DNA from: Candidatus Minusculum obligatum
Lineage (GTDB): Bacteria; Patescibacteriota; Minisyncoccia; Phycocordibacterales; Phycocordibacteraceae
Assembly (NCBI GenBank): GCA_045401155.1
Contig: CP174360.1
Location: 159,035-223,034 of the forward strand
DNA length: 64,000 bases
Direction: 5' to 3'
A model generated the notes under the pieces. The model ran no database searches and was not told where the DNA came from. It saw nothing but the letters and a program-made list of their open reading frames with translations. A program made the position numbers and the translations under genes. Of the stretch, positions 30,021-63,406 are shown piece after piece. The number at the start of each line of letters is the position of its first letter. Positions within the stretch are counted from its first letter, which is position 1.

Positions 30021-30054
<34 letters not shown>

Positions 30055-30621
30055 GAGAGGGGAGTGAAATAGAACTGAAACCATATACTTACAAACAGTT
30101 GGAGGGGTACTTGTACCCTGACAGCGTGCCTATTGAAGAATGAGCCGGCGAGTGTATATGTGCTGCAAGCTAAGTCCGTAATGGGACGGAGCTTTAGGGA
30201 AACCGAGTGTGAATAGCGCGTTAGTAGTATGTATACGACCCGAAACTAAGTGAGCTTGCCATGGGCAGGGTGAACACGTGTGAAAACACGTGGGAGGCCC
30301 GCACCGGTTGGTCGTTTAATGCCATCGGATGACCTGTGGTAGGGAGTGAAAAGCTAATCGAACTTAGTAATAGCTGGTTCTCTCCGAAACAGCTTTAGGG
30401 TTGGCGTCGCGTGTTCCCTTCGGGGGTAGAGCACTGGAAGGACTAAATAGGGGGAAACCTCGTTAGTCCTATCAAACTCCGAATACCGAAGATTAATAAC
30501 GCGGCAGTTAGACTGCGGGGAGAAGCTCCGTTGGTCGAAAGGGGAACAGCCCAGATCGCCAGTTAAGGCCCCTAAATTAGTGCTCAGTGTAACTTAAGGA
30601 AGTGAGGATCCTCCGACAATG

Positions 30622-30672
<51 letters not shown>

Positions 30673-30740
30673 TCATCAAGGGTCCTTGCGCCGCAAATGA
30701 TCGGGACTTAAGCACTATGCCGAAACTGCGGGTTCGCGGA

Positions 30741-30919
30741 TTTCATTCAGGAAATGTTCTTTGTTTATTGAGGGGTGTTGGCCGAGCGGTTAAAGGCAGC
30801 GGGCTCGTCAGCCCGTGAGTTGGGAATCGTATGTCCCAGTACAACTCATCGCAGGTTCGAATCCTGTACACCCTGCCAATAAACTTTTTGACAATCTTCG
30901 GATTGTCTCCTGAATGAAA
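30741..30919 (+). other. intervening sequence inserted in 23S helix 45, closed by a perfect 12-bp inverted repeat (tttcattcagga / tcctgaatgaaa) and containing a tRNA-like element
   Basis: Alignment to the E. coli helix-45 region shows about 180 extra nt between 'ggttcgcgga' and 'tccgtgagcgg'. The flanks are perfectly complementary, and an inner 7-bp stem gtttatt/aataaac also brackets the tRNA-like core. Confidence 0.7.
30772..30878 (+). tRNA. class-II tRNA(Ser)-like element with encoded CCA, embedded in the 23S helix-45 insertion; anticodon loop is 6 nt (TCGTCA), so possibly a non-decoding pseudo-tRNA
   Basis: Acceptor GGGGTGT/ACACCCT, D arm TGGCCGAGCGGTTAAAGGCA (matches bacterial tRNA-Ser), anticodon stem CGGGC/GCCCG, a roughly 35-nt variable hairpin (GAGTTG...CAACTC), T arm GCAGG-TTCGAAT-CCTGT, discriminator G and CCA. 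Confidence 0.45.
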
Positions 30920-31631
30920 TCCGTGAGCGGTAGGAGAGCGTTCTGTTCGCGATGAAGGTAAAGGGGTGACCCATACTGGAGCGTACAGAAGTGAGAATGC
31001 CGGCACGAGTAACCGCAATGCGAGTGAGAGCCTCGCACACCGAAAGACCAAGGTTTCCGCAGCTACGATGATCAGCTGCGGGTTAGTCGGGCCTAAGGGG
31101 ATGACGAAAGTCGCACCCGATGGACACATGGTTAATATTCCATGACTGCATTACTATGCGATGGGGGGACGGATTGTTGTACACATTGCCCATTATTGGA
31201 TTTGGGTCGATGCTATGAGGGCTGCTTTTAGGTAAATCCGGAAGCGTATAGTCCAAGTAGAGTCGCAATGTTTTGGTTTCGGCCAGAATAGAGAATGTGG
31301 AGCACGGTTCCCAGAAAAGCCTCTAAGCATAATAGTAATGTATCCGTACCGCAATCCAACACAGGTGGTCAGGGCGAGTAGCCCAAGGTGAACGAGTGAT
31401 GGGTCCTCAAGGAACTCGGCAAAAAAGCGACCGTAACTTCGGGATAAGGTCTGCCCCTGCTTCTTCGGAGGTGGGGGCCGCAGCGAAAGTTTCTCTGGCG
31501 ACTGTTTATCAAAAACACAGCTCCCTGCGAACTCGTAAGAGTATGTATAGGGGGTGACGCCTGACCAATGCCAGAAGGTTAAGCACGGATGGTACATTTC
31601 TTCGGATTTGTGCTGGGCTGTGTAAGCCCTG

Positions 31632-31670
<39 letters not shown>

Positions 31671-32378
31671 TAATTCCTTGTCGGGTAAGTTCCGACGTGC
31701 ACGAATGGCGTAACGACTGGAGAACTGTCTCGAGGACTTGCTCGGTGAAAATGCAATCCCGGTAAAGATGCCGGGTAGATGTGGAAAGACAGAAAGACCC
31801 CAGAAGCTTTACTACAGCTTCGTATTGGGGCTGCGTGACATGTGCGTAGCATAGGTGGGAGACTTTGAAGCATTCCTTTTGGGGAATGTGGAGTCGTCAG
31901 TGAAATACCACTCTCATGTTGTTCAGTCTCTAACCCTTAGGGAAACCCTAAAGGGACAGTGCGTGGTGGGTAGTTTGAGTGGGGCGCTCTCCTCCTAAAA
32001 AGTAACGGAGGAGTCTATTAAGGTCAGCTAGGCGCGAATGGACACCGTGCCGATAGTGTAATGGCAAAAGCTGGCTTGACTGTGAGGGGTACGTCCCGAG
32101 CAGGTGCGAAAGCAGAGCATAGTGATCCGACTGTACGCATTAGATGCGGCAGGAGCTCAACGGATAAAAGCTACTCTGGGGATAACAGGCTAGTCGCGCC
32201 CAAGCGTCCATAGCGACGGCGCGGTTCGGCACCTCGATGTCGGCTCATCTTATCCTGGGGCTGGAGAAGGTCCCAAGGGTTTGGCTGTTCGCCAATTAAA
32301 AAGATACGCGAGCTGGGTTCAAACCGTCGTGAGACAGGTTGGTTCTCTATCTTCCACATCCGTCGATTCTTGCAGAGA

Positions 32379-32411
<33 letters not shown>

Positions 32412-32469
32412 AACCTCTGGTCTATCGGCTGTCACGCCAGTGGCACTGCCGAGTAGCTATGTTCGGAAT

Positions 32470-32502
<33 letters not shown>

Positions 32503-32710
32503 AACTCTAAGATTAGGAATCATTAAGACCCCTAGGAGATGACTAGGTTGATAGGCTCTACGTAGAAGTACAGTGATGTATTGAGCGGAGGAGTACTAAT
32601 TCGTCGTCGTCTCCAACAAGGAAGTCTGGATGACACAATATCTTTGAAGCTTTTGCTGATGAAATGTATTCGCTTTTCTTTCAATGAAATAAAAAACAAC
32701 GTGTTTTTTG

Positions 32711-32818
32711 TGTTGGTGATATGGCAAGGTGGAAACACCTGTTCTCATTCCGAACACAGAAGTTAAGCGCCTTCGCGCCGATGGTACTCGAAAGGGGAGA
32801 GTAGGTCGTCGCCAACAC
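32711..32818 (+). rRNA. rrf: 5S ribosomal RNA (about 108 nt)
   Basis: CCGAACACAGAAGTTAAGCGCC..CGCGCCGATGGTACT...GAGAGTAGG; the 5' gtgttggtg pairs with the 3' cgccaacac. Confidence 0.85.
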
Positions 32819-42757: not shown

Positions 42758-42904
42758 GGCCCCACTGTCTAGAAAGGCAGTTTTTGATTGATTTTTGAAA
42801 CACGAGTCTAGTCCATTGGAGCTACCAAGTGACTAGATCATAGAGTACGTAATGATCACTGAGTTAAGTGGAATGAAATATATTTTCTTTCGTTCCGCCT
42901 ATTC

Positions 42905-44362
<1,458 letters not shown>

Positions 44363-44550
44363 GTGGACTTCTTGTACTTTGTACAAGTACGGCGATCATC
44401 TGTTTTACAGATGTGGACATGGCACTCATCCAGAAATGGTGCCCGGCGTACCTACAGTCGGAAGTAGGTCGTTGTGTTGTCGAATTCGCAACATAACGTG
44501 AATAGGCGGAACGAATGAGTATATATTTCAGATTTACGTACACTATGAGC

Positions 44551-46831: not shown

Positions 46832-46904
46832 GCGCGCATAGCTCAGTTGGCTAGAGCATTCGACTGATACTCGAAAGGTCCTAGGTTCGAATCCTAGTGC
46901 GCGC
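46832..46904 (+). tRNA. tRNA-Ile (anticodon GAT); CCA not encoded
   Basis: Acceptor GCGCGCA/TGCGCGC, D arm GCTC-AGTTGGCTA-GAGC, anticodon arm TTCGA-CTGATAC-TCGAA, T arm CTAGG-TTCGAAT-CCTAG, discriminator A. Confidence 0.9.
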
Positions 46905-47038
46905 ACAAAAAGGTATATTGCATTACATATGAAAGATCGTTTTTGGTTCAAGAGAATGTATTTCGGTATTGGTTGGGTACCAGCAACATGGCAGGGAGGT
47001 AAGAGATAGCAGCAAAAGAACACACACTTATATACAAG

Positions 47039-47113: not shown

Positions 47114-50100
47114 ATGAAATTTAGATTTCTCACAAGTGCAACAGTTCCCATTTGGTATAAAACAGCACTTGTTGCTATACCTATTTTTATATTTTTATGG
47201 AGTGTATTTCTCACGCCTTTTTTGACAGCGCTTCCAAAAGATTTCTCATACGAAGCAGACATTAGCTCAGTAGATAATTTTTATGATGAGACTATCGGGG
47301 AGTATTTAGGGGAGGAGTACTCTGTAACGACGTTTTCATATAATGCAGAACGAAGCTTGAGCGGCGTTCTTGATATTACACATACATTTAATGTGCGCAC
47401 CCAGGCCGGGGAGCCAATTTTTTCTGTTGAGAGAATGTACGGTATCGACAGGTTCACGCAGGAACATGTTTCAGGGTTTGGTGATGCAGACAGGTATGGA
47501 TACTTGTTTGCGCCAAAGTTTTTAGATGAAAGTAAGGAGTTTACCTATTGGCATATTAATTATGATGCGCCTGCACAAATGGAGTTTGTGGCAGTGGAGA
47601 AGATACTGGGTCTTGAAGTGCTTCGATATCATTCATCATATGAGGGAGAGTGGATTGATCAAACTGAGAATCTTGCCTATTTACCGGGGGTTCCTGAGGA
47701 GCGTGGTGTTGTAGTAGAGCCAGAGCTTACCATATGGGTGGAGCCCGTATCTGGGCACTTAGTTAAGTATGAAGATGAGACTATCGCATATTACTATGAT
47801 CAGGAAACAAAGGAAAAAATAGTCCCATGGAACAGGTTCAGCAACACACTAACAGAGCAGAGTGTGCGAACACATGTTGCCAGTGCACAAGATGCAAAGA
47901 CAAAAAATCTGTTTTATGTATGGTACGTGCCATTGCTTCTTGGGCTGCTCTGGGCAGGGCTCATTGTTTTTGGGAAGACTGTTATCTCAGAGTTTGTTCA
48001 AAAATACATACACTCAAAAGTAATTATTCCTATAGCTGGAGGGTTTCTTATGCTCTCAGCGGGAGTTGTTTTGGTTGATTGGGCGTTACAGCTTGGTGCC
48101 GTATTTCAAATATTTTCAAGTGGAGCAGGGATGAATCCACTTACCGCGCTTACATTTTTTATTATAGGACTTGCGCTAGTTTTTCTTTCGCAAAAGAAGA
48201 TGAAGATTGTGTTTGTGCTAACGGGAGGTGTTATCTTCATCCCTATTTTAAATGTACTTAGTCTTACAAACACCATTCCTATAGATGTTGACCTCATTCT
48301 CTTTAGGGATGCAATTGAGAGTGCGGGAGTACTTTCGCGGATGTCCTGGTTTACAACCATCAACTTTATTTTTCTAGGAATATCAGGACTCGCGTTGCAA
48401 GATTTTCCGCGTCGCATAAAACAATTTTTTTCATTTTTGCCGTTTGGAACACTTGCCGCAGCATTGCTTGCAATTGTTGGATACATAGCAAAAGACCTTG
48501 CACTCCTAGAGTTAATTGTCTTTTCTGGTGTAGGACTAAACACCGCAATTTTGTTTATTGTTGTTTCTATTGTGGCTCTATATATTTACGGATTCCGTAT
48601 TTCTCGAACATCAGGACTTTTGTTTAGTGTATTTTTCACCACATTATTTATTTCTACAATAATGTATTCCTACGTAGTGTCGATTAGTGCACAAAAGCTT
48701 GATGTGCTTTTTTCTGTAGAAACTGCTGCGGTACAAGATACGATTCGAGATAGGTTGAGTATTTATGCAAACACACTCGCAGGTGGTGTAGGTCTCTTTA
48801 ATGCTTCAAATGCAGTAAGTAGAGAGGAGTGGCGTGCATATGTTGAGGCAATTTCAGTGCAAGAAAATTATCCTGGTATCCAGGGTGTTGGGTATGCTGT
48901 TGTGGTAGAAGATGAGCAGGCGCTTATAGAGGAGGTGCGAAACGAAGGCTTCCCTGAGTTTAGTGTGTATCCAGAAAGCGATGAAGAGTTGCGCACAAGC
49001 ATCATTTATCTTGAGCCATTTGATTTTAGAAACCAGCGTGCTTTTGGGTACGACATGTTTTCAGAACAAAATCGTAGACTCGCTATGCAGCGCGCCCGAG
49101 ACTCAGGGCTTCCAAAGATTTCTGATAAGATTACTCTCTTGCAAGAGACAGAGAGTGATGTACAGGCGGGGTTCTTGATGTACTTGCCAGTATACAAAAA
49201 GGGAGACACTCCAATTGATTCTATTGATAGTCGAAGGGCGGGTATTGAAGGATTTGTATACGCTCCGTTCCGTATGAATGACTTTATGGGGGGTATGCAA
49301 AATACGTTTGATAACGAACTTGCCTTTCGCATGTTTAGTGGAACAGAAGCAGACATTGATCAATTATTATATGCTCAAAATGGATCTGCATTTACGGGTG
49401 TCGGAGGAGATGAGGGGGTGTATTCAACAGTCTTTTATGCTGCAGGGCAACCGTGGCTAATTCAGTTTAAGCAACTCCCGTTCTTTGGAGAAGGTGTACG
49501 CGACACAATCTTGCCTCCGTTTATTGCGGCCGTTGGTATCATTGTGAGTTTGCTTGCAACTTTGATTTTATATGCACTTCTTTCTTCTCGAGAGCGTGCA
49601 CTCGCGTATGCAGAGCGTATTACGCAAAACCTAAAGTTGAGTAAGGATCAACTTCTTGAGGCAAAGACACAAACAGAAGCGCTTCTTGGAAGTATTGGAG
49701 AAGGTGTGGTTGCGGTATCTATGACCGGGGAAATCATGTTCGTAAATGATTATGTAGAAAATTTCTTTGGTCGCAAAGGAGAGGAATTTAAAGGGCAGAA
49801 ACTCTTTGATGTAGTTGATGTTGCAGATGAAAATGGGAAAGAAGTTCCTCTTGAGTCATGGTCTGTATATCGTGCGATAAAAACAAAGAAGCGAGTGGTT
49901 GAAACACGGCATATGGTGCGCCTAGATGGAGGTGAGTTTAAGCCTGTGTCTATTACAACAAGCCCAATCATTGTAAATGACAAACCAGTTGGTGCGGTTG
50001 CCGTGTTCCGTGACATTACACAAGAGCGTGCGATAGACCGAGCAAAAAGTGAGTTTGTATCCCTTGCGTCACATCAGTTGCGCACACCACTTTCTGCCAT

Positions 50101-50791
50101 TAATTGGTACGCTGAGATGTTGATGGACGGAGATGCTGGAAAGATCACGAAAAAACAAAGTGAATATTTGGATGAAATATATAAAGGCAATCAGCGAATG
50201 ATTGATTTGGTAAATGCATTGCTAAATGTTTCTCGCATTGAGTTAGGTACATTTTCTGTAGAGCCAGAGGAAATGAATGTAAATGACATTGTAAATGACG
50301 TACTAAAAGAAATAAAAACTTCAGTTGATGAGCGTGACATTCATCTCTCAGTCGGCACAAAGAAGCTTGCAACCATGGTTGCTGACCCGCAACTTGTTCG
50401 CATGGTGGTAACTAACCTGCTTACAAATGCGGTGAAGTACACCCCTGAGGGCGGTGAAGTTACGGTGCGCACAGACATGGTGTCTTCTGGAGAAGAGGTG
50501 CACGGCAAAAAGGCTAAAGAAGAATCAGTGCTTCTTTCTGTTTCAGATACGGGATATGGAATTCCAGAGAATCAAAAAAAAGAAATATTTAAAAAACTCT
50601 TCCGTGCAGATAATGTACAGCGCCGAGACACAAAGGGTACGGGTCTGGGACTATATATTGCAAAGTCAATTGTAGACTTAGCGCAAGGAGAGATTTGGTT
50701 TGATTCTGTAGAAGATAAAGGAACAACATTCTATGTATTGCTTCCTATACACGGCATGGAAAAGAAAGAGGGAAGTAAGCGTATTTCCTAA
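47114..50791 (+). CDS. multi-domain sensor histidine kinase: extracytoplasmic N-terminal domain, polytopic TM region, CHASE-like domain, PAS, HisKA, HATPase_c
   Basis: CHASE-like segment (LSIYANTLAGGVGLF...AFGYDMFSEQNRRLAMQRARDSG), PAS (LLGSIGEGVVAVSMTGEIMFVN), H-box (SEFVSLASHQLRTPLSAI), N/G boxes (LLTNAVKYT, DTGYGIP, GTGLGLYIAKSIV). Confidence 0.85.
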   Translation: MKFRFLTSATVPIWYKTALVAIPIFIFLWSVFLTPFLTALPKDFSYEADISSVDNFYDETIGEYLGEEYSVTTFSYNAERSLSGVLDITHTFNVRTQAGEPIFSVERMYGIDRFTQEHVSGFGDADRYGYLFAPKFLDESKEFTYWHINYDAPAQMEFVAVEKILGLEVLRYHSSYEGEWIDQTENLAYLPGVPEERGVVVEPELTIWVEPVSGHLVKYEDETIAYYYDQETKEKIVPWNRFSNTLTEQSVRTHVASAQDAKTKNLFYVWYVPLLLGLLWAGLIVFGKTVISEFVQKYIHSKVIIPIAGGFLMLSAGVVLVDWALQLGAVFQIFSSGAGMNPLTALTFFIIGLALVFLSQKKMKIVFVLTGGVIFIPILNVLSLTNTIPIDVDLILFRDAIESAGVLSRMSWFTTINFIFLGISGLALQDFPRRIKQFFSFLPFGTLAAALLAIVGYIAKDLALLELIVFSGVGLNTAILFIVVSIVALYIYGFRISRTSGLLFSVFFTTLFISTIMYSYVVSISAQKLDVLFSVETAAVQDTIRDRLSIYANTLAGGVGLFNASNAVSREEWRAYVEAISVQENYPGIQGVGYAVVVEDEQALIEEVRNEGFPEFSVYPESDEELRTSIIYLEPFDFRNQRAFGYDMFSEQNRRLAMQRARDSGLPKISDKITLLQETESDVQAGFLMYLPVYKKGDTPIDSIDSRRAGIEGFVYAPFRMNDFMGGMQNTFDNELAFRMFSGTEADIDQLLYAQNGSAFTGVGGDEGVYSTVFYAAGQPWLIQFKQLPFFGEGVRDTILPPFIAAVGIIVSLLATLILYALLSSRERALAYAERITQNLKLSKDQLLEAKTQTEALLGSIGEGVVAVSMTGEIMFVNDYVENFFGRKGEEFKGQKLFDVVDVADENGKEVPLESWSVYRAIKTKKRVVETRHMVRLDGGEFKPVSITTSPIIVNDKPVGAVAVFRDITQERAIDRAKSEFVSLASHQLRTPLSAINWYAEMLMDGDAGKITKKQSEYLDEIYKGNQRMIDLVNALLNVSRIELGTFSVEPEEMNVNDIVNDVLKEIKTSVDERDIHLSVGTKKLATMVADPQLVRMVVTNLLTNAVKYTPEGGEVTVRTDMVSSGEEVHGKKAKEESVLLSVSDTGYGIPENQKKEIFKKLFRADNVQRRDTKGTGLGLYIAKSIVDLAQGEIWFDSVEDKGTTFYVLLPIHGMEKKEGSKRIS

Positions 50792-50807
50792 GGTATAGTG
50801 TAGATAT

Positions 50808-51188
50808 ATGAAGAAAACAATACTTGTTGTAGAAGATGAATTTCCACTTCTGGATGCTATTACGGAAATGCTTGAAAAGAAGGGGTACGCTGTTGCTTCA
50901 GCACGAAGCGCCAAAGAGGTATTTGAGCTTCTAGAAGATCTCCCAGGACTTGCAGCAGTATGGCTTGATCACTACATTCTAGGAAGAGAGAATGGGCTTG
51001 ATATTGTTGCACGGATGAAGCAAGAGCCTAGTTGGAAAAACATTCCAATATTTGTAGTCTCAAATACTGCCACAGACGATAAGGTTACTTCGTATATACA
51101 GCTTGGTGTAGAGAAGTTTTATGTAAAATCAGAGGCAAAGATTCACGATATTATTGAAGAAATTCACACAGTGATTAACTCAGCGTAG
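50808..51188 (+). CDS. stand-alone response-regulator receiver (CheY-like) protein 1
   Basis: ILVVEDE...AVWLDHYI...K; receiver domain only. Confidence 0.8.
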   Translation: MKKTILVVEDEFPLLDAITEMLEKKGYAVASARSAKEVFELLEDLPGLAAVWLDHYILGRENGLDIVARMKQEPSWKNIPIFVVSNTATDDKVTSYIQLGVEKFYVKSEAKIHDIIEEIHTVINSA

Positions 51189-51190
51189 CT

Positions 51191-51553
51191 ATGAAAATTC
51201 TTATTGTAGAAGACGAGACACCACTTTTAGAAGCACTTTCTACAAAGTTGTCTGGTGCGGGGCATGATATATGTATCGCAAAAGATGGTGTAGAGGGAGT
51301 TACGACAGCGTTTTCAGAGCGTCCAGATATTGTATTGCTCGACATTAAGATGCCAAGAAAAGATGGACTTCAAATGCTTAAAGAGCTTCGAGAAGGTGAG
51401 TGGGGTAAGGAGGTAAGAGTGATTGTTCTTACCAACTTAAACGATCCAGAGCATATTGCAGACATGCTTGAGGCAGGAGCAAATGAGTATTTGGTGAAGA
51501 CAGAGTGGAAATTAAATGAGCTGTTGGATCATCTTGTAGAGAAGGTTTCTTAA
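51191..51553 (+). CDS. stand-alone response-regulator receiver (CheY-like) protein 2
   Basis: ILIVEDE...IVLLDIKMPRKDGLQML. Confidence 0.85.
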   Translation: MKILIVEDETPLLEALSTKLSGAGHDICIAKDGVEGVTTAFSERPDIVLLDIKMPRKDGLQMLKELREGEWGKEVRVIVLTNLNDPEHIADMLEAGANEYLVKTEWKLNELLDHLVEKVS

Positions 51554-51597
51554 CAGGGCGCAACAAGAGCGTCTCTTTTTAAAGCTATACTAGACAT

Positions 51598-51966
51598 ATG
51601 GATGCAAAGAAAAAAATTCTGATCGCAGAAGATGAGAAACCTTTGGCAGAAGCACTTTCTACAAAGTTGTCTAATGCGGGGTATGAGGTAGATGTTGCAG
51701 GAGATGGAAGTGTTGCATGTGAGCGCATGAACAATGGTGCATATGATATGGCTATAGTAGATCTTGTAATGCCTGAGAAAGATGGATTTGCAGTACTCGA
51801 AGAAATGAAAGAAAAAGGGATTACAACACCAATTATTGTTGTATCAAACTTAGCACAAGAGGTAGATAAGGAGCGTGCCCTGGCGCTTGGCGCAGAGGCT
51901 TATTTTGTAAAATCAAACACGCCACTTTCTCAGCTTGTTGAGGAGGTAAAAAAGCGTGTTTCCTAA
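51598..51966 (+). CDS. stand-alone response-regulator receiver (CheY-like) protein 3
   Basis: ILIAEDE...MAIVDLVMPEKDGFAVL. Confidence 0.85.
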   Translation: MDAKKKILIAEDEKPLAEALSTKLSNAGYEVDVAGDGSVACERMNNGAYDMAIVDLVMPEKDGFAVLEEMKEKGITTPIIVVSNLAQEVDKERALALGAEAYFVKSNTPLSQLVEEVKKRVS

Positions 51967-51972
51967 CACCAC

Positions 51973-53622
51973 ATGAAAGGAGCACCGCAGTACTCTCTAG
52001 AAGAGGCGCAAAGTATTTTTGTTAATGGAGGGTATGTGTCTCCAGAGAATTTTGCATTGGTAGAAAAAGAGGCGGATGTGGTGGGCGCATTAGTGCGTAA
52101 AAATATTTTAACTCCTGACCTCGTGGGACAAGCAATTGCTGAACATGCAGCTGTAAATTACGCAGACATTAATTCAAATGGTGTCGCGCACGGTTGGCAT
52201 GAGAAAATTTCTGAAGAAGATGCACGCGTATATCGTTTTGTAATTTTTTCTGTAGCGCCGAAAAAGCGTCATGTTATTGCCGCAACTGATACATTAAAAA
52301 ACCGCACAGAAATTGTTACGTCTGTAAAGAAGGGATATCCAGGGCATACCATTGAGGTTGCATATGGACTTACTTCAGATATTGATAATGCATTTAAGGT
52401 GTATCAAAAGCCATTGCAAAGTCGTTTAAAAGAGATTCTTTCTCAAGAGTCTAAGCGTGTATCAACGAGTCTTGATGAAATTTTAAAGGAGGCGCTTGAT
52501 CGCAATGTGTCAGATATTCATTTTGAGCCTCGAAAGGAGAAGGTCTCTATTCGTTTTCGTATTGACGGTGTGCTTTCTATAGTCGGAGAGGTTTCAGACG
52601 AGTACTACAAGAGTATGGTCAACCGTATTAAGATCTTGGCGGGGCTTCGTATTGACGAGCATACTAAAACACAAGATGGATCAATTCGTACAGCAGACGC
52701 GGCGGGAGATCCGGTTGACCTTCGTGTATCTGTGGCACCAACTATTTCAGGAGAAAAAGTGGTGATTCGTGTGCTTTCTAAGTACACCGAGCGCAGTTAT
52801 CTTGAAGATCTTGGTTTTACTGAGAAGCAGGCTGCTGTAATTATGGCTGCTGCAGAGAATCCGCTTGGATTTATTGTGGTATCAGGCCCCACTGGGTCAG
52901 GTAAGACAACAACGCTTCATACACTACTTTCCGCAATTGCATCTCCAGAGATAAATATTACGACAATTGAGGATCCGGTTGAGTATCGCCTTAAGGATGC
53001 GAATCAGATTCAGGTAAATGAAGCGCAAGGCATAACTTTTGCAAAAGGGCTTCGCTCTATTGTGCGTCAGGACCCAGATGTGATTTTGGTAGGAGAGGTT
53101 CGGGATATTGAGACTGCAGAAATTAGTATTAATGCAGCACTTACCGGACACCGTGTGTTTACCACATTCCACGCAAGTAGTGCGTCTATTACGATTCCAC
53201 GACTTCTTGATATGGGTGTAGAGGAATTTCTTCTAAGCTCTACGCTTTCTGTGGTGGTGGGACAGCGACTAGTGCGTAAGCTTTGTTCTGAGTGTCGCTT
53301 TAGTTACCAGGTGCCGCTTAAAGATATTCCGATTGAAAAGCCGAATAGATTCTTTTTTGCAAAACAAACACTCTATGATGCAAAAGGGTGTGCGGCATGT
53401 GGTGGTACGGGGTATCGAGGGCGTATTGCAGTTGCTGAAGTATTGCAAGTTTCAGATGGACTTCGGAATTTAATATTACAAAAAGCAGATGCAGGTGCGC
53501 TTGAGAGCCAAGCTATACAAGATGGTATGGATACCATGTTCATTTCAGGTATTGAGAAGGTGAAGAGAGGAGAAACATCTCTTGCTGAGCTTCTGCGTGT
53601 GGTAACGCCTCCAGATGCGTAG
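51973..53622 (+). CDS. pilB: type IV pilus assembly ATPase PilB (GspE family)
   Basis: N-terminal GspE_N-like domain, Walker A GPTGSGKTTTLHTLL, and a CxxC...CxxC tetracysteine. Confidence 0.9.
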   Translation: MKGAPQYSLEEAQSIFVNGGYVSPENFALVEKEADVVGALVRKNILTPDLVGQAIAEHAAVNYADINSNGVAHGWHEKISEEDARVYRFVIFSVAPKKRHVIAATDTLKNRTEIVTSVKKGYPGHTIEVAYGLTSDIDNAFKVYQKPLQSRLKEILSQESKRVSTSLDEILKEALDRNVSDIHFEPRKEKVSIRFRIDGVLSIVGEVSDEYYKSMVNRIKILAGLRIDEHTKTQDGSIRTADAAGDPVDLRVSVAPTISGEKVVIRVLSKYTERSYLEDLGFTEKQAAVIMAAAENPLGFIVVSGPTGSGKTTTLHTLLSAIASPEINITTIEDPVEYRLKDANQIQVNEAQGITFAKGLRSIVRQDPDVILVGEVRDIETAEISINAALTGHRVFTTFHASSASITIPRLLDMGVEEFLLSSTLSVVVGQRLVRKLCSECRFSYQVPLKDIPIEKPNRFFFAKQTLYDAKGCAACGGTGYRGRIAVAEVLQVSDGLRNLILQKADAGALESQAIQDGMDTMFISGIEKVKRGETSLAELLRVVTPPDA

Positions 53623-54721
53623 TATGAAAAAAGCTTCTTCAGAGAAAAAGAGAATTATTGCGAGTCTTAAAAATGCTGGCCTACAAGATGCGGTGTACTT
53701 ATTTTTTGATGAGCTTACAGCACTCATGCGTGCAGGAATTACAGTTACAAGAGCTGTGGGAAGCATTAAAGAATCTACACCTTCAAGGCGACTGCGTAAG
53801 ATTCTTGGGAGAGTGGAACAGTCACTTATTGAGGGAGCAACATTATCTGAAGCGCTTTCAGCTGAGTACATCATTAATCCACGTATCAAGACGCTGCTTG
53901 ATGTAGGAGAGCGTTCAGGAAATTTAATTGCAAATCTTGAAGCCATTACACTTCAAAATGAAAAGGAGGTGCTCTTTCGTGGGGCGGTACGATCTTCTCT
54001 GTTGTATGTGGTGATTGTAATGACCGTGTCTCTTGGAGTTGGTATTGCAACCCCATGGATCATTTTGCCGCAGCTAACGGCATTCTTTAGCACCTTTGAT
54101 GCAGATCTTCCTGGCATTACATTATTCTTGATTGGTACCGGGCAATTCTTCACAGATTATGGAGTGTTTGTATTTCCGGCACTCGCAGTGTTTCTTATTC
54201 TTATTTTGTACTTTCTTTTCTCATTCCCAAAGACACGATTTATTGGGCACTCAGTTCTTTTCCATCTACCACTTTCGCACCGCCTGATTAAGGAGGCAGA
54301 GATTGCACGCTTTAGTTATCTGCTTGGTACGCAGCTTCGTGCGGGCATTTCGATTATGGATGCACTTGAGGTGATGCCATCTACAACAACATATGCAAAC
54401 TACAGAAGATTTTATATGACGGTATTAGATCGGGTGAAGGAAGGGTATTCGTTTTCAGAGGCGGTGCTATATGCGGATCCAAAGAAAAAGTTATTGAGCA
54501 GTAGCGTGGTACAGCTTGTCTCAGCAGGGGAGCAATCAGGATCTCTTTCAGATATGTTGCTGAAGGTTGGGGAGACATATGAGAATCGTGTGCAGCAAAC
54601 TGCTAAGAGTATTCCAACATTGCTTGAGCCAATTATGTTGGTGCTTGTGGGGGCGATTGTGGCAGTGATTGCGCTCGGGGTCGTGCTGCCGGTTTACAAT
54701 CTTTCAGAAATTATAAAGTAG
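53615..54721 (+). CDS. pilC: type IV pilus inner-membrane platform protein PilC (GspF family)
   Basis: Two GspF repeats and 3 TM helices; the C-terminus 'LLEPIMLVLVGAIVAVIALGVVLPVYNL' is typical. Confidence 0.85.
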   Translation: MRSMKKASSEKKRIIASLKNAGLQDAVYLFFDELTALMRAGITVTRAVGSIKESTPSRRLRKILGRVEQSLIEGATLSEALSAEYIINPRIKTLLDVGERSGNLIANLEAITLQNEKEVLFRGAVRSSLLYVVIVMTVSLGVGIATPWIILPQLTAFFSTFDADLPGITLFLIGTGQFFTDYGVFVFPALAVFLILILYFLFSFPKTRFIGHSVLFHLPLSHRLIKEAEIARFSYLLGTQLRAGISIMDALEVMPSTTTYANYRRFYMTVLDRVKEGYSFSEAVLYADPKKKLLSSSVVQLVSAGEQSGSLSDMLLKVGETYENRVQQTAKSIPTLLEPIMLVLVGAIVAVIALGVVLPVYNLSEIIK

Positions 54722-54722
54722 T

Positions 54723-55499
54723 ATGCGCGGGTTCTTGCTCATAGAAGGAGTCATTGCTGCTGCACTGACACTTTTAATTAGTGCTGCGATTGCAGGGGTG
54801 TATGTGAGCACAAGTAAGGTGCATGAGGAGGAGATTGTAGATGCGGCACTTCTATCTTCTGCAGAAGCCGGTCTCTCTATTGCACGCAGTATTAGAGACT
54901 TAGATTCAGAGAATTTTCCTATAGGCACATTTGGTGTTGCGAGTACTACAGGGTCGTGGAGCTTTTCAGGAAGTTCTGATGTGAGTAATGGTATTAGTCG
55001 CAGTGTGGTGGTGAGCAGTGTAGATGAAAATACGTTCAAGGTTATTTCAACTGCTAGTAGTGGAAGCAGGAGTAAGAGTTTGAGTACATATTTTTCACGT
55101 TGGCGTGAGGAGGTTGTAAGTGAGGGCACGCTTGTGCTTGATGTAAGTGCTGCGTCTGTTGGTGGTTCAAAAAATGCAGTGCTTTCAGGTATTACGATTG
55201 AAAATACAGGAGGTGCAGAGGTTGAGATTGATACGGCAGTTATTACGTGGACGGGGAATCGTCGTGTAAGTTCAGTTACGATTGATGGGGTAGATTTCTG
55301 GACTGCAGGGGGAGTGGGTTCTCCAAATGGAAATCAAACAAGCGGTACTGTACTTGATGGCACAGATATTGCGATAGCTGCGGGAGATACCGTGCCAATG
55401 GCCGTCACCTTTAATAATAAAGTAAGCGGAGAGACGTTTAGTGTCACACTTAATTTAGTTGGTGGAGGAAGTGTTAGTTCAGGAAGTTTTACACCATGA
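54723..55499 (+). CDS. type IV pilin/pseudopilin-like protein (class III signal: MRG|FLLIE)
   Basis: Prepilin cleavage motif G-F-x-x-x-E followed by a hydrophobic helix; Ser/Thr/Gly-rich globular part. Confidence 0.65.
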   Translation: MRGFLLIEGVIAAALTLLISAAIAGVYVSTSKVHEEEIVDAALLSSAEAGLSIARSIRDLDSENFPIGTFGVASTTGSWSFSGSSDVSNGISRSVVVSSVDENTFKVISTASSGSRSKSLSTYFSRWREEVVSEGTLVLDVSAASVGGSKNAVLSGITIENTGGAEVEIDTAVITWTGNRRVSSVTIDGVDFWTAGGVGSPNGNQTSGTVLDGTDIAIAAGDTVPMAVTFNNKVSGETFSVTLNLVGGGSVSSGSFTP

Positions 55500-55927
55500 G
55501 TAGAGGATTCACATTAATTGAACTTATTGTTTACATTGCACTGATGAGCATTGTCTTTGGCGCACTTGCGAGTTTAGTGGTGTCAGGGAATCGTGGGGTT
55601 ACAGGTCGTGAGCAGGTAGATGATGTGTACGTAGCGCAGGCTCGTATTATGAAGAGTATTAGAGATGACGTAGATGATAGTTCTAGTGTGAGTGCTCCAG
55701 GAGGTAATTTGCAGCTTGCTACAAGTGGTGGGTCTGTCACGTACACGGTTGCAGGAGGAGAGTTTCGCAGAGGTGCAGATGTGATCTCACCTCCAAGTGT
55801 TGTGGTGTCTGATTTTTCTGCGGAGGTATTTAATAGCAAGGGAGTGTCTGTATCGATGAGGCTTACGCACGTAGATGATAGTGAGGAGGTTCTATATATA
55901 GAGAATGCATTTGTATTGTATGAATAA
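55496..55927 (+). CDS. type IV pilin (prepilin motif MSRG|FTLIELIVYIALMSIV)
   Basis: Canonical GFTLIE N-terminus. Confidence 0.7.
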   Translation: MSRGFTLIELIVYIALMSIVFGALASLVVSGNRGVTGREQVDDVYVAQARIMKSIRDDVDDSSSVSAPGGNLQLATSGGSVTYTVAGGEFRRGADVISPPSVVVSDFSAEVFNSKGVSVSMRLTHVDDSEEVLYIENAFVLYE

Positions 55928-56279
55928 AGGATTTACCACAACCTTCATATTAGTTATCGTCATGGCATTTACGTTAGCGGGAGTGCTCGCGGTTGCGACG
56001 CGTACAGTCTCAGTACTTAAGTACGATCGGGTTGTAAGTACTAGAGCTCAGGCGGTATTCTCAGCGCATGCTTGTGCTGAGGCGGGATTGCTTTCGGTTA
56101 GAGATGGCGGAAGTACATCAGGGAGCATAAGTGATGGTGCTATTTCTTGTTCATATAATGTAAGCGGTACTACAGTTGCCGCTACAGGGGCTGCAGGCGG
56201 TGTTTCAAAAAGCGTAAGTGTTTCTTTTGTCGAAGGGAATCCGCTCAGCGTAAGCTCATTTACAGGTCTTAAGTGGTAG
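55920..56279 (+). CDS. minor pilin-like protein (MNKGFTTTFILVIV...; lacks Glu5)
   Basis: Pilin-like hydrophobic N-terminus at a pilin-cluster position. Confidence 0.4.
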   Translation: MNKGFTTTFILVIVMAFTLAGVLAVATRTVSVLKYDRVVSTRAQAVFSAHACAEAGLLSVRDGGSTSGSISDGAISCSYNVSGTTVAATGAAGGVSKSVSVSFVEGNPLSVSSFTGLKW

Positions 56280-60621: not shown

Positions 60622-62226
60622 GTGTATACTGTATGTATGAGTGAGAACCTTGATAAGGTGACCTATTTTGGTGCTGCAGATGCGCGTGGAAGAAACACGC
60701 CTTTTGGTATTCGTAAGGGAGACCGGACGCGGCACATGTACGTGATTGGGAAGACGGGTATGGGTAAGAGTACCTTGCTTGAGAACCTTGCCATTCAGGA
60801 TATTAATAATGGAGAAGGGTTGGCATTTATTGATCCGCACGGCTCTACTGCAGAGACGCTTTTAGATTATATTCCAGAGCACCGCGTAAAGGATGTGGTG
60901 TATTTTGCGCCGTTTGATTTGGATAACCCTATTGCCTTCAATGTGATGGAGGATGTTGGATACGATAAGCGACACTTGGTGGTAAGTGGACTTATGTCTA
61001 CCTTCAAGAAGATTTGGGTGGATGCGTGGAGTGCGCGAATGGAGTACATTTTGACCAACACACTTTTGGCGCTTCTTGAGTATCCGGGAGCAACACTTTT
61101 GGGAGTGAATCGTATGTACGTAGATAAGGACTATCGTAATGATGTGATCGCACATATTACCGATCCTGTAGTAAAAGACTTTTGGACAAAAGAGTTTGCA
61201 GGGTATACCGATCGATTTACACAAGAGGCAACACCTGCGATTCAAAACAAGGTGGGCCAGTTTACAAGTAACCCAGTGATTAGAAATATCATTGGGCAGC
61301 CAGTATCTTCTTTTGATATTAGAAAGATTATGGATGAGAAGAAGATTCTTATCGTAAACCTTTCAAAGGGGCAGGTAGGAGATACGAATGCGCAGCTTCT
61401 CGGATCTATGCTTACGACGCGTATTTATCTTGCGGCGATGAGTCGTGCAGACTTACGTAAGTCAGAGTTGCAAAAGCTTCCAAACTTTTATTTCTATGTG
61501 GACGAGTTCCAAAACTTTGCCAATGAGACCTTTGCAGAGATTCTCTCTGAGGCACGTAAGTACAAACTTAATCTTATTATCGCGCACCAATACATTGAGC
61601 AGATGGAAGAGGAGGTTAAAAATGCGGTATTTGGAAACGTGGGTACGACCGTCTCTTTTCGTGTAGGTCCGTTTGACGCAGAGGTGCTCGAGGCCATTTT
61701 CCAACCAAGCTTCACCAAAGAAGATTTGGTGAACCTGGGACAGTACCAGATTTATCTAACCCTTATGATCAATGGGGTTGGTAGCCAGCCATTTTCTGCA
61801 ATGACCATTCCGCCAATTGAAATGCCAGATGTGACATATCGAGAGGAGGTAATTGCAAACTCTAAGAAAACATACGGAAAGGAGCGTAAGGGGATTGAGG
61901 AGGCAATCTTTGCAGCACTTTCTCCATTGCAGCCTGCAGGAAAAGCAATGCAGGAAGAGAAGAAAAAGCCGAAGAAGCAAAATAATAATAATACTAAGAA
62001 ACAGAATCCTCCAAAGAAGCAAGAAAAGAATTCAGGAGAGCTTCGAGATATTTTAAAGAAGGTAGCAGGTAAGGAAGAGAAGAAAAAAGAAATGCCGAAG
62101 CAAGAAAACAGTGCTCTAAAGGAGGCGCTTAAGAAAGCAGAGGTTAGAGAGACTCCAAAGACTGAAGCTAAGACAAATGAAGTTCCTGAAGAGGTACTGA
62201 AACAAATTATTGCTGATGATTCGTAG
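60622..62226 (+). CDS. FtsK/HerA/TraG-superfamily P-loop ATPase (AAA_10/DUF87-like) with Lys-rich C-terminal tail
   Basis: Walker A VIGKTGMGKSTLLENL followed by FIDPHGS (the DPHGE/DPKG motif of HerA/VirD4/VirB4-type ATPases). C-terminal KKKPKKQNNNNTKKQNPPKKQEK. Confidence 0.6.
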   Translation: MYTVCMSENLDKVTYFGAADARGRNTPFGIRKGDRTRHMYVIGKTGMGKSTLLENLAIQDINNGEGLAFIDPHGSTAETLLDYIPEHRVKDVVYFAPFDLDNPIAFNVMEDVGYDKRHLVVSGLMSTFKKIWVDAWSARMEYILTNTLLALLEYPGATLLGVNRMYVDKDYRNDVIAHITDPVVKDFWTKEFAGYTDRFTQEATPAIQNKVGQFTSNPVIRNIIGQPVSSFDIRKIMDEKKILIVNLSKGQVGDTNAQLLGSMLTTRIYLAAMSRADLRKSELQKLPNFYFYVDEFQNFANETFAEILSEARKYKLNLIIAHQYIEQMEEEVKNAVFGNVGTTVSFRVGPFDAEVLEAIFQPSFTKEDLVNLGQYQIYLTLMINGVGSQPFSAMTIPPIEMPDVTYREEVIANSKKTYGKERKGIEEAIFAALSPLQPAGKAMQEEKKKPKKQNNNNTKKQNPPKKQEKNSGELRDILKKVAGKEEKKKEMPKQENSALKEALKKAEVRETPKTEAKTNEVPEEVLKQIIADDS

Positions 62227-63406
62227 CCTTCTTTTATTTTGTATCTTTCCGCATCTTGCGTTTGCAGGAGTCTATATAAGTGAGGTTGCATGGATGGGAG
62301 ATGGTGAGAGTGCAAATAATGAGTGGATAGAGTTATATAGTAGTGAGTCAGTTGATCTTGGTGGGTGGAGCCTCTCTGCATTAGATGGCACGCCAAGCAT
62401 TTCATTAGAGGGCACCATAGATGGTGCTTTTGTTATATATCGTGGGACTAACTACTCTGGTGCACTAGAAAATAGTGGAGAAGTGCTTATTCTTTCAGAT
62501 GCTTCTGGTGCAGAAATAGATAGAGTAGATGGAGGTGATGGGTGGAGTATCGGGGGAGACAATGACTCAAAAGAAACTGCTCAGTTTATAGATGGGTCAT
62601 GGATTACAGCTTCTCCTACACCAGGCTCTGTTTCTTTTGCAGAAGAAACGGTTGTAGAGAGTGTTTCTAGTGCTGGTGGCTCTACGTATACTCCGGCACA
62701 TTTAGTTATTGATATTCCAGATGTGATTGAGGTTGTTGCAGGAGATGATCATATATTTGAGGTTGGTGTAGGGAATAGTGAGGGTGCTACGTACACGGGA
62801 GCCTTGGTGTCGTGGAATTTTGGAGACGGAAGCAGTCTTTCGGGGAATAAGATATATCATCGCTATCCGTATGCGGGGGAGTACGTGGCATATGTGCATG
62901 TGCGGTATGGAAATGAAGAGTTTTCTAAAAAAGTTTTGGTGGTGGTGCGGGATGCAGATATTTCATTTTCAGTAGTAGATCAAGATAAGGTGGAGATTAT
63001 AAATGGAGATGATACAGAATTAGATATTTCACATTGGAGGATTACAGACGGCTCTAATGTGTTTATGTTCCCAGCGCATAGTTATGTAGGGAATGAGAGT
63101 TCTGTGTTTATCTCATCTGCCGTGGCAGGATTTAATTTTGGAGAGGATACAGTACTTACGTATCCAAATGGAGAGGAGGTCTTGAGGACTGAAGAAGAGG
63201 TCATAGTTTCTCCGCAGGTTGTATATGTTCCTGCTCCTGTAGTGGAAGAGGTTTTAGTAGAAGAAGATGAGGCACCTCTACTACCTGCGGCAGCAGTTGT
63301 TGCAGATGAAGCTGCAGGAGGGTTGTCGATATGGGTGTATGCCTGGGTGCTGGTAGTTTTGCTGGCGGGCGGAAGTATCGTATATGTGCGAAAGGCGCGG
63401 GCCTGA
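62210..63406 (+). CDS. secreted lamin-tail-domain (LTD) protein with C-terminal TM anchor
   Basis: Signal peptide; 'VYISEVAWMGDGESANNEWIELYSSESVDLGGWSLS' is an LTD signature. C-terminal hydrophobic helix plus RKARA. Confidence 0.65.
   Translation: MLMIRSLLLFCIFPHLAFAGVYISEVAWMGDGESANNEWIELYSSESVDLGGWSLSALDGTPSISLEGTIDGAFVIYRGTNYSGALENSGEVLILSDASGAEIDRVDGGDGWSIGGDNDSKETAQFIDGSWITASPTPGSVSFAEETVVESVSSAGGSTYTPAHLVIDIPDVIEVVAGDDHIFEVGVGNSEGATYTGALVSWNFGDGSSLSGNKIYHRYPYAGEYVAYVHVRYGNEEFSKKVLVVVRDADISFSVVDQDKVEIINGDDTELDISHWRITDGSNVFMFPAHSYVGNESSVFISSAVAGFNFGEDTVLTYPNGEEVLRTEEEVIVSPQVVYVPAPVVEEVLVEEDEAPLLPAAAVVADEAAGGLSIWVYAWVLVVLLAGGSIVYVRKARA

Follow-up and report, generated by a model that had tools for sequence, protein, structure and literature searches.

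Cultivated Patescibacteria, also known as Candidate Phyla Radiation (CPR) bacteria, grow in attachment to other microbes, a lifestyle in which type IV pili play a central part (PMC6744442, PMC9894109, PMC11623550). How these bacteria decide on the deployment of their pili is not addressed in the searchable literature. A locus that bears on this question is found in a stretch of 64,000 nucleotides from Candidatus Minusculum obligatum (contig CP174360.1, positions 159,035 to 223,034; hereafter, the window). Nine genes on the forward strand (47114-56279) encode a histidine kinase, three receiver-only proteins (REC1, REC2, and REC3), the pilus extension ATPase PilB, the platform protein PilC, and three pilin-like proteins. 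The first-pass annotation of this DNA, made from its letters alone, had proposed that the receivers couple the sensor kinase to the pilus. The locus and its relatives point to a simple answer of this kind, in which the two-component kinase talks directly to the pilus motor via a neighboring receiver-only protein. The linkage is deeply conserved, which argues for a functional tie of the sensor kinase to a reduced PilB-PilC pilus.

Conserved gene pairs within the operon

The nine genes are separated by 16, 2, 44, 6, -8, 1, -4, and -23 nt, from the kinase through the last pilin-like gene, and these tight or overlapping junctions indicate a single operon. A check of the open reading frames (ORFs) returned exactly the coordinates and sizes first given for the kinase and the three receivers. 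The identical nine-gene order, located between murD and murC, is found in an independent assembly (L001), and variants of it on four further contigs, so that the possibility of a locus split by an assembly error, considered at the outset, can be set aside.

The receiver that adjoins the motor is REC3. This type represents 37 of the 38 distinct receivers adjoining pilB, with a median gap of 25 nt. In a sample of 71 non-redundant loci, retrieved from metagenomes with a REC1-specific alignment, pilB comes directly after receiver chains with REC3 as the last member in 13 of 18 loci, and in none of the 17 loci whose chains lack REC3. The kinase, for its part, is encoded directly upstream of REC1 in 39 of the 48 informative loci. 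Chains of three receivers up to pilB are independently found again in L134, L150, L165, and L166. The reverse test started from REC3 homologs picked solely for their location on long contigs, and all three of them lie 3-22 nt upstream of a pilB-pilC-pilins cluster.

The same association is found at increasing distance from the window. All close orthologs of PilB (59-92% identity) are encoded together with one or more sensors, two or three receivers, pilC, and three pilins; these modules sit in at least three genomic contexts, and their sensors can be fused, split, or joined by an added dCache kinase. A background set of 58 PilB loci from species-representative genomes, taken among the matches listed and not containing this close clade, holds a stand-alone receiver directly upstream of pilB in nine loci. 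Eight of these nine REC-linked proteins belong to the lineage of the window's PilB and the ninth (L056) falls just outside of it. Among the same listed matches, six pilB-pilT-pilC loci could be read upstream of pilB, and none of them has a receiver there; the REC-linked lineage is separate from these systems. The nearest outgroup PilB proteins, with around 48% identity, have a receiver directly upstream in four of four loci.

Some loci are much simpler than the one in the window. Three of them (L088, L171, and L172) consist of REC3, pilB, pilC, and pilins, ending with one small PAS/HisKA kinase and holding no other receiver, and this arrangement is the minimal circuit. In another three (L086, L169, and L170), the REC3-pilB pair has no kinase within 8-10 kb. 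Judging from gene content, the window locus can be regarded as an elaborated form of a receiver-plus-pilus-motor module that is widespread in Patescibacteria and not peculiar to this genome. The sampling implies that a few hundred related loci exist.

The co-variation of these proteins was evaluated in a mirror-tree comparison of pairwise distance matrices, using 16 loci with all components. The distances of the kinase core follow those of REC1 (rho 0.90), even with the PilC signal removed (partial rho 0.88), whereas REC3 and kinase distances hardly agree (rho 0.23, partial 0.02). The contrast between these two equally short receivers is large, even if the sample is small and its pairs are not independent. 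REC3 distances correlate instead with those of the PilB N-domain (rho 0.55) and PilC (rho 0.50). On these grounds, the locus can be divided into two evolutionary modules: module A, with the kinase and REC1, and module B, with REC3, PilB, PilC, and the minor pilins.

Three receivers of separate orthologous types

Response_reg (PF00072, with a gathering cut-off of 30.2 bits) is the sole Pfam domain in each of the three proteins (Table 1). True receivers are defined by five active-site residues, namely an acidic pair, the acceptor Asp, a Ser or Thr, and a Lys, the loss of which is characteristic of pseudo-receivers (PMC12632262). These correspond to E9-D10, D54 (codon 50967-50969), S85, and K107 in REC1; E7-D8, D51 (codon 51341-51343), T81, and K103 in REC2; and E11-D12, D55 (codon 51760-51762), S83, and K105 in REC3. 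The residue check suggested with the first-pass annotation, where a missing acceptor Asp was the concern, thus finds the complete set in the three proteins. Among 156 orthologs (76 R1, 22 R2, and 58 R3 distinct sequences), neither the acceptor Asp nor the Lys ever varies, a Ser or Thr is found in every case, and only one complete sequence departs from the acidic pair. Since the five residues are kept across orthologs, REC1, REC2, and REC3 qualify by sequence as true receivers, not pseudo-receivers, and their phosphorylation is predicted.

The AlphaFold2 model of REC3 (mean predicted local distance difference test score, pLDDT, 93.8) has the (beta-alpha)5 fold, with five strand-helix repeats, and superimposes on solved receivers, including RR468 and members of the OmpR family, with TM scores of 0.89-0.92. 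The closest proteins by both sequence and fold are RR468 from Thermotoga and the receivers of the OmpR/PhoB family (RR468, YycF, and PhoB-type among the structures in the PDB). The only CheY model among the best 25 NCBIfam matches of each protein is CheY_Halo, which REC2 matches with 50.3 bits, below the cut-off of 200. The initial description of the three proteins as CheY-like therefore applies to their architecture and not to their relatedness, as their nearest relatives are RR468 and OmpR/PhoB-family receivers instead of CheY, PilG, or PilH.

The periphery of the active site is unusual. In both REC1 and REC3 the residue following the conserved Ser/Thr (T+1) is Asn and the one following the catalytic Lys (K+1) is Ser, and across around 150 orthologs of the three types (L001-L172) Asn at T+1 is nearly invariant and Pro is never found after the Lys. 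In the non-CPR receivers aligned with them, T+1 is Ala or Thr and the Lys is followed by Pro. REC1 differs further in the loop between beta3 and alpha3, which reads D54-HYILGRENG and has no Pro at D+4. This divergent loop, already remarked upon in the initial reading, is real and constitutes a conserved trait of the REC1 orthologs, where Tyr or His is found at D+1 and the usual Pro at D+4 is missing. Ala or Gly occupies T+1 in 74% of receivers, and positions in the T+1, K+1, D+1, and D+4 region influence active-site access, kinetics, and conformational equilibria (PMC12632262). Asn at T+1 and a residue other than Pro at K+1 may thus define a receiver subfamily with distinctive kinetics, and it is plausible that the phosphorylation kinetics of REC1 and REC3 differ from each other.

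The main kinase-docking surface of receivers is the alpha1 helix. In the window, REC2 and REC3 share 10 of 13 residues of this helix (ETPLLEALSTKLS vs EKPLAEALSTKLS), with 41% identity over the whole proteins, and this likeness fits a competition of both for one phosphodonor.

None of the 97 REC3 homologs, all of them of 118-138 aa, holds an output domain, and no DNA-binding domain is found in REC1-REC3, according to Pfam and NCBIfam, nor in the REC3 homologs. The receivers have no further domain, which sets them apart from regulators of the PilS-PilR type, where a DNA-binding AAA+ activator of sigma-54 would be expected. In public databases, the homologs of REC3 go under the names 'response regulator transcription factor', 'DNA-binding response OmpR family regulator', or 'CheY-like chemotaxis protein'. 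The name 'transcription factor' is an over-annotation, as neither a DNA-binding domain nor a chemotaxis context is present, and the analysis of this locus corrects the public 'transcription factor' and 'chemotaxis protein' labels on these receiver-only proteins.

With pairwise identities of 24-41%, REC1, REC2, and REC3 each fall in their own orthologous group in the tree of receivers from related loci. A recent tandem duplication of one receiver is ruled out by these three separate types, and the three proteins, first described as tandem paralogs, are so only in a broad sense: they are three ancient types and not the product of a local amplification. The REC3 type is found immediately upstream of pilB in the window, in L001, L002, L003, and L005, and in the Saccharibacteria loci L006-L008. 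The REC1 type, with its divergent WLD(H/Y)Y loop, follows the kinase and is conserved out to L006 and L007. REC2, in the strict sense, is limited to the window, L001, and L003/L004. In L002, whose PilB is 77% identical to that of the window, only REC1 and REC3 are present, and REC2 was recently deleted, given that its last ~22 nt persist in the spacer. L005 also has two receivers. Receiver copy number is thus labile around a core of REC1 and REC3, with REC2 as an optional extra. An 85-aa ORF of L002 that could be taken for a decaying receiver belongs to an intact REC3 gene interrupted by a scaffold gap of 10 N.

A short motif, AAAG-(G/C)TATACT, ends 6 nt before the start codon of REC3. The window, L001, L002, and L003 all keep it, regardless of whether the preceding gene is REC1 or REC2, and in L005 it is degenerate. 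For the REC3-pilB unit, this motif could act as an internal promoter (-10-like) or as a translation signal. The possibility of an intrinsic terminator between REC2 and REC3 was discarded, since the candidate hairpin (51556-51574) has a folding z-score of 0.34 and is not conserved.

Sensor kinase and pilus motor

Table 1. Features of the kinase-receiver-pilus operon, with positions in the window.
Feature	Position	Strand	Basis
Sensor histidine kinase, 1225 aa	47114-50791	+	Pfam, hydropathy, box motifs
REC1 (R1 type), receiver-only protein, 126 aa	50808-51188	+	Pfam Response_reg 54.1 bits
REC2 (R2 type), receiver-only protein, 120 aa	51191-51553	+	Pfam Response_reg 82.2 bits
AAAG-(G/C)TATACT motif before REC3	51581-51591	+	Conserved in relatives
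REC3 (R3 type), receiver-only protein, 122 aa	51598-51966	+	Pfam Response_reg 80.2 bits
PilB/GspE-type extension ATPase, 549 aa	51973-53622	+	Pfam T2SSE PF00437 387 bits
PilC/GspF-type platform protein, 368 aa	53615-54721	+	Pfam T2SSF 139.7 bits, two repeats
Pilin-like protein, 258 aa, N-terminus MRG/FLLIEG (cut before F)	54723-55499	+	jackhmmer orthology to p2
Pilin-like protein, 143 aa, N-terminus MSRG/FTLIEL (cut before F)	55496-55927	+	Pfam N_methyl 29.5 bits; p3 counterpart
Pilin-like protein, 124 aa, ..MNKG/FTTTF (cut before F), without Glu5	55905-56279	+	Orthology to p4

The kinase has around ten transmembrane segments according to its hydropathy, and matches the Pfam families PorA-like (PF11271), CHASE (PF03924, 201.5 bits), PAS, HisKA, and HATPase_c. 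A first transmembrane segment (aa ~19-37) is followed by a PorA/DUF3068-like extracytoplasmic domain (aa 95-287, nt 47396-47974), around eight transmembrane segments (aa 269-524), the extracytoplasmic CHASE domain (aa 567-753, nt 48812-49372), and a further transmembrane segment (aa 804-822). The PAS domain (aa 854-970), the HisKA domain with the phospho-acceptor His987 (nt 50042-50245), and HATPase_c (nt 50384-50749) form the transmitter inside the cell, with intact H, N, G1, F, and G2 boxes. With a membrane-flanked CHASE domain, a HisKA/HATPase transmitter, and an intact H box, the protein is a CHASE-domain sensor kinase. Its best partial matches in NCBIfam are PnpS, WalK, and PhoR, each of them under its cut-off, and Pfam reveals neither a receiver nor a histidine phosphotransfer (Hpt) domain in it.

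The input domains of the related kinases vary from HAMP only to dCache with HAMP, GAF, CHASE, or PorA-like with seven transmembrane segments and CHASE, while the PAS-HisKA-HATPase core is constant. Variable sensor domains on a constant transmitter core are what would be expected of a reusable signaling cassette. In some relatives the sensor is split, either in a gene for the PorA-like domain, seven transmembrane segments, and CHASE (890-919 aa), followed by one for PAS-HisKA-HATPase (535-578 aa), or in a CHASE-PAS protein followed by a dCache-HAMP-PAS kinase; such loci include L005 (4123-8534), L116 (1606-5986), and L003 (4789-8806). The split is probably real and not the result of a frameshift, because the same one is found on two independent contigs.

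PilB holds the expected motifs of an extension ATPase, namely Walker A (G305PTGSGKT), the Asp box/Walker B (D367PDVILVGE), the His box (TGH391), and a tetracysteine motif (C438SEC...C473AAC). Its scores remain under the NCBIfam equivalog cut-offs both for PilB (TIGR02538, 428 against 675.65) and for GspE (TIGR02533, 430.3 against 630.25), and it can be assigned, on its sequence, to a distinct, REC-linked lineage of PilB. The N-domain (aa ~5-163) falls under the Pfam threshold. The missing PF05157 match in the close clade could have been explained by a novel docking domain, an option that is ruled out by hhalign, which aligns this region to the N-domains of canonical Patescibacterial PilB proteins with a probability of 100% and 34% identity, as a diverged but ordinary MshEN/T2SSE_N domain. 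In one related locus, a 319-aa ORF holding MshEN and only the first ~140 positions of T2SSE is found directly upstream of a REC1-REC pair (L094, 429-1388); this truncated PilB-like gene may be what is left of a module that decayed or was rearranged.

Only the first two pilin-like genes carry the canonical G/F...E5 signal, and the third, without E5, encodes a non-canonical minor pilin. The fuller Patescibacterial module has five pilin-like genes: p1 (~145 aa), p2, p3 (~172 aa), p4 (~132 aa, without Glu5), and p5 (~160 aa, with a canonical AGFTLLEV N-terminus). The p2 proteins of related loci reach 470-2009 aa and often hold an LVIVD propeller, H-type lectin, or pentaxin domains. According to jackhmmer orthology, the window encodes a shortened counterpart of p2 and counterparts of p3 and p4, with p1 and p5 missing from the operon, so that it provides the motor, the platform, and a probable priming or tip pilin set. 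The genes of a complete type IVa pilus are not all there, since neither the operon nor the rest of the 64-kb window holds pilT, pilM/N/O, pilD, or the major pilin, and no additional prepilin beyond the three pilin-like genes is found in the window either. Given the absence of p1, p5, pilD, and further prepilins, the operon must rely on a pilD and a major pilin encoded elsewhere. The minimal type IV pilus of the first reading can be retained as a reduced PilB-PilC set, with the proviso that its pilins are limited to the minor p2-p4.

The lectin- and propeller-bearing p2 proteins hint at a role in adhesion. In three unrelated loci, comEC, dprA, or recX are found within a few kb of the REC3-pilB module (L088, 3000-4430; L169, 18478-19566; L086, 5814-6428). 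A role in DNA uptake is weakly hinted at by the gene order and these neighbors.

Proposed mechanism and alternatives

The regulation favored here, moderately probable on the combined grounds of sequence and analogy, is a branched two-component circuit, where the phosphorylated form of REC3 would act on the PilB/PilC motor, while REC1 and REC2 would serve as a sink, competitors, or side outputs. Upon a signal from outside the cell, the HisKA kinase would autophosphorylate at His987 and pass the phosphoryl group to REC1, its tight cognate partner, as well as to REC3 and REC2. Once phosphorylated, REC3 would bind the PilB/PilC motor and alter its activity, starting or stopping pilus assembly. REC1, together with REC2 where present, would draw phosphoryl groups from the same kinase as a sink, competitor, feedback, or side output, and thereby set the gain and timing of the circuit. 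The output would be post-translational, with no transcription factor involved. REC3 lacks an output domain and must therefore act by protein contacts, its only constant partner being PilB (with PilC). We infer the phosphotransfer to each receiver, the binding of REC3 to PilB, the sign of its effect, the roles of REC1 and REC2, and the function of the pilus.

Several observations weigh against this circuit. REC3 does not co-evolve with the adjacent kinase, which may therefore not be its main phosphodonor, and the mirror-tree test rests on 16 non-independent loci only. Cassettes of the kinase and REC1, with or without an extra receiver, are also found away from pilB, beside ychF, ftsH, gdh, and major facilitator superfamily (MFS) genes, and imply that REC1 has a role which does not require the pilus locus; no alternative recurring neighbor emerged for these cassettes, merely unrelated housekeeping genes. 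The rare Asn at T+1 may slow or restrict phosphorylation. On the side of the motor, the N-domain of PilB is ordinary and offers no special docking module for the receiver, and a REC-PilB fusion of the Rosetta-stone type is found neither in the 97 REC3 homologs nor in any ORF of around 170 loci. Finally, whether a filament is formed at all depends on genes outside the window, since the cluster holds no major pilin, pilD, pilT, or pilM/N/O.

The weak co-evolution of REC3 with the kinase and the kinase-less REC3-pilB loci keep two other explanations alive. One of them, which is unlikely, sees the receivers as mere phosphate sinks or kinetic buffers, with the real output of the kinase elsewhere, either through another regulator of the genome or through REC1 on a target other than the pilus, and the adjacency to pilB reflecting co-transcription. 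The cassettes without pilB nearby would fit such a role, as would the REC3 distances that do not follow the kinase. A mere sink, however, should be found to accompany the kinase, like REC1, and not the ATPase; the REC3-pilB pair instead survives shuffled contexts, changes of sensor type, and a kinase placed upstream, downstream, or nowhere in the locus. The other explanation, distinctly unlikely, is that REC3 is a structural or assembly subunit working independently of phosphorylation, for instance an adaptor between PilB and PilC, and that the kinase serves REC1 and REC2 only. That REC3 tracks PilB and PilC, is found next to pilB without a kinase in L086, L169, and L170, and belongs to a module without pilM/N/O would agree with it, and Asn at T+1 with a non-Pro K+1 fits a conformation-weighted role. 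Yet the five phosphorylation residues, which pseudo-receivers lose (PMC12632262), are invariant or nearly so in 58 REC3 sequences, and the minimal loci pair REC3 with a single kinase.

Two more elaborate routes have less in their favor. The arrangement of several receivers encoded serially between a kinase and its target had led the first-pass annotation to suggest a phosphorelay, and bifunctional HisKA kinases can indeed shuttle phosphate among receivers; the phosphoryl group would then go from the kinase to REC1, and from there to REC3 through an unrecognised His-phosphotransfer protein or back via the kinase. This route is very unlikely and the suggestion is not upheld, as the parts of a His-Asp-His-Asp chain are not visible: a domain search finds neither an Hpt domain nor a hybrid kinase in the operon or in ten kinases of related loci, every gene of the operon is accounted for, and many loci pair a kinase with REC3 alone. 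The least likely of all is a transcriptional output through an unseen partner, either a sigma/anti-sigma switch or a DNA-binding protein encoded elsewhere. The conserved motif just upstream of REC3 and the public name of 'response regulator transcription factor' could be cited in its support, against which stand the receivers without a DNA-binding domain, the over-annotation behind that name, and the fact that no candidate partner recurs in the loci.

Returning to the branched circuit, a wider and more tentative proposal is that REC3-type receivers might work across Patescibacteria as the phospho-switch of a motor without PilT and PilM/N/O, representing the main sensory-motor circuit of these reduced cells, for which no Chp chemosensory system is found in the window or in the related loci examined. 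If this were true, interchangeable extracellular sensors, of the CHASE, dCache, or another type, would within seconds set off the extension of pili to contact a host or capture DNA, and multi-receiver versions such as that of the window would add the logic of a sink or an antagonist.

Comparison with known systems

Parallels are found in Xanthomonas. The receiver-only protein EmvR of X. oryzae pv. oryzicola interacts with PilB, whose ATPase activity it reduces, and with the HisKA kinase ColS (PMC11973254), and DrdR from X. campestris binds PilB and PilT (PMC13507683). A receiver-only regulator and PilB are thus common to these systems and to the window, where the contact of REC3 with PilB is the one proposed above. 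The kinase of EmvR also has a second regulator, in a 'one-to-two' branch similar to the one suggested here. The differences are several: emvR and drdR are orphans located away from the pilus operon, whereas here the receiver is operon-linked to pilB; their hosts are diderm bacteria with full type IVa pili, including PilT, and with control by PilZ, FimX, and cyclic di-GMP; the second regulator in the EmvR system is DNA-binding, whereas all the outputs are receiver-only here; and the window receivers belong to a different sequence family, with Asn at T+1 and a non-Pro K+1.

A division of labor between two receivers of one kinase is known for PilG/PilH in the Chp system of Pseudomonas and for PixG/PixH in the Tax1 system of Synechocystis (PMC11181946; bioRxiv 10.1101/2021.06.11.447907). 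In Synechocystis, only phosphorylated PixG binds PilB1, and PixH counteracts it (PMC11181946), and analogous roles are ascribed to PilG and PilH, as told in the EmvR paper (PMC11973254). One receiver acting on PilB when phosphorylated, while the other competes for phosphate, resembles the roles proposed for REC3 and for REC1/REC2. Unlike in the window, these systems use a CheA-type kinase, methyl-accepting chemotaxis proteins (MCPs), and CheW, PixG carries a PATAN output domain, and the function is polarity or the steering of twitching. That no CheA-type kinase or Chp system operates at this locus, as claimed from the beginning, agrees with the 64 kb of the window, where no CheA, CheW, or MCP is found, and with the related loci, where CheA occurs in none of those examined and ten kinases are all of the HisKA type.

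By sequence, the closest solved relative of REC1 and REC3, and also one of the top fold matches, is RR468 from Thermotoga maritima in its pair with HK853 (PDB 3dge, 4ja2). RR468 is likewise a stand-alone receiver encoded with a PAS/HisKA kinase, but differs in having no known pilus link and in its usual receiver signature, without the Asn at T+1 and non-Pro K+1.

Among pilus systems, the ComG operon of Firmicutes (comGA-GB-GC...GG) has in common with the window an ATPase, a platform protein, and a run of small pilins, without pilM/N/O, pilT, or a secretin. The likeness extends to the context, as some related loci adjoin comEC, dprA, or recX. The matches to the equivalog models of ComGA (NF041000, 255.3 against 300) and ComGB (NF041012, 106.4 against 240) remain below their cut-offs, and the 267-position ComGA model covers only aa 169-435 of PilB, which keeps an MshEN-type N-domain outside of it. 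The control of ComG is transcriptional, by ComK or ComX, and not exerted by receivers of its own operon. The loci related to the window add a large pilin-like protein bearing lectin or propeller domains.

Within Patescibacteria, the pili T4P-1 and T4P-2 of the Saccharibacteria strain TM7x serve for host binding and twitching and illustrate how a tiny genome can hold several systems (PMC11623550). Their loci differ from that of the window in the presence of pilM/N/O (and pilT and pilD in the first locus), and the REC-linked PilB proteins form another branch of the PilB tree. The study of these pili mentions no response regulator or kinase (PMC11623550), nor does a survey of CPR protein families. 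A study of groundwater, in turn, reports CheY-like genes enriched in sediment-attached ultra-small genomes. No description of a response regulator-pilB link in CPR/Patescibacteria was found in the open-access and bioRxiv literature, and a prior description elsewhere is possible. All the domains involved are already known, and so is the principle of PilB control by a receiver-only protein. What appears to be new is the lineage-wide coupling at the operon level in Patescibacteria, the two-module architecture with one to three receivers, and the signature of the receiver subfamily.

The locus provides defined proteins for assays (the kinase core, REC1-3, and PilB) and defined point mutants such as D55A/E. 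The CHASE and dCache inputs could help to identify the host or environmental cues that are sensed, and a receiver subfamily with an unusual active-site periphery is of interest for the study of receiver kinetics.

Genomic setting

The surroundings of the operon are formed by housekeeping genes, including those for Mur ligases, SecDF, RecA, FtsK, aminoacyl-tRNA synthetases, and ribosomal proteins, a setting typical of a reduced CPR genome. No cheA, pilT, pilD, or pilM/N/O gene is found in the 64 kb. An O-antigen-ligase/TPR protein is preceded by two large ORFs without a Pfam match at E <= 1e-4 (15900-19247, 1115 aa; 19397-20590, 397 aa).

Downstream of the pilus operon, the window encodes a VirD4/TraG/TrwB-like coupling-protein ATPase (534 aa) and, after it, a surface protein with lamin-tail and PKD domains (60622-63406). 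This pair is kept 4 kb downstream of the operon in L001 (16136-18986) and in L002 (15935 onward). The ATPase may be a component of DNA transfer or DNA uptake; other parts of a type IV secretion system (T4SS) are not seen.

The rRNA genes do not form a linked unit and follow an unusual order, with 23S-5S (29464-32817) around 10 kb upstream of 16S (42904-44363) and separated from it by cell-envelope and SecDF genes. The usual place of tRNA-Ile(GAU) is the 16S-23S spacer. Here this gene (46832-46906), the single tRNA of the window, is found 2.5 kb downstream of 16S, past murD. The 23S gene (29464-32619) holds an insertion of ~176 nt (30745-30920) after model position 1218. Its core (30772-30879) is a tRNA-like cloverleaf, scoring 42 bits with the Rfam tRNA model against a gathering score of 29, with a 7-bp acceptor stem, a D arm, a long variable arm, a T arm (GGUUCGAAUCC), and an encoded G-CCA tail. 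The arm in the 'anticodon' position has a 7-bp stem and a 4-nt loop, and ARAGORN makes no call. This insert could be a signal for processing by RNase P/Z, which would split the 23S rRNA into fragments, or else an embedded tRNA that has degenerated.

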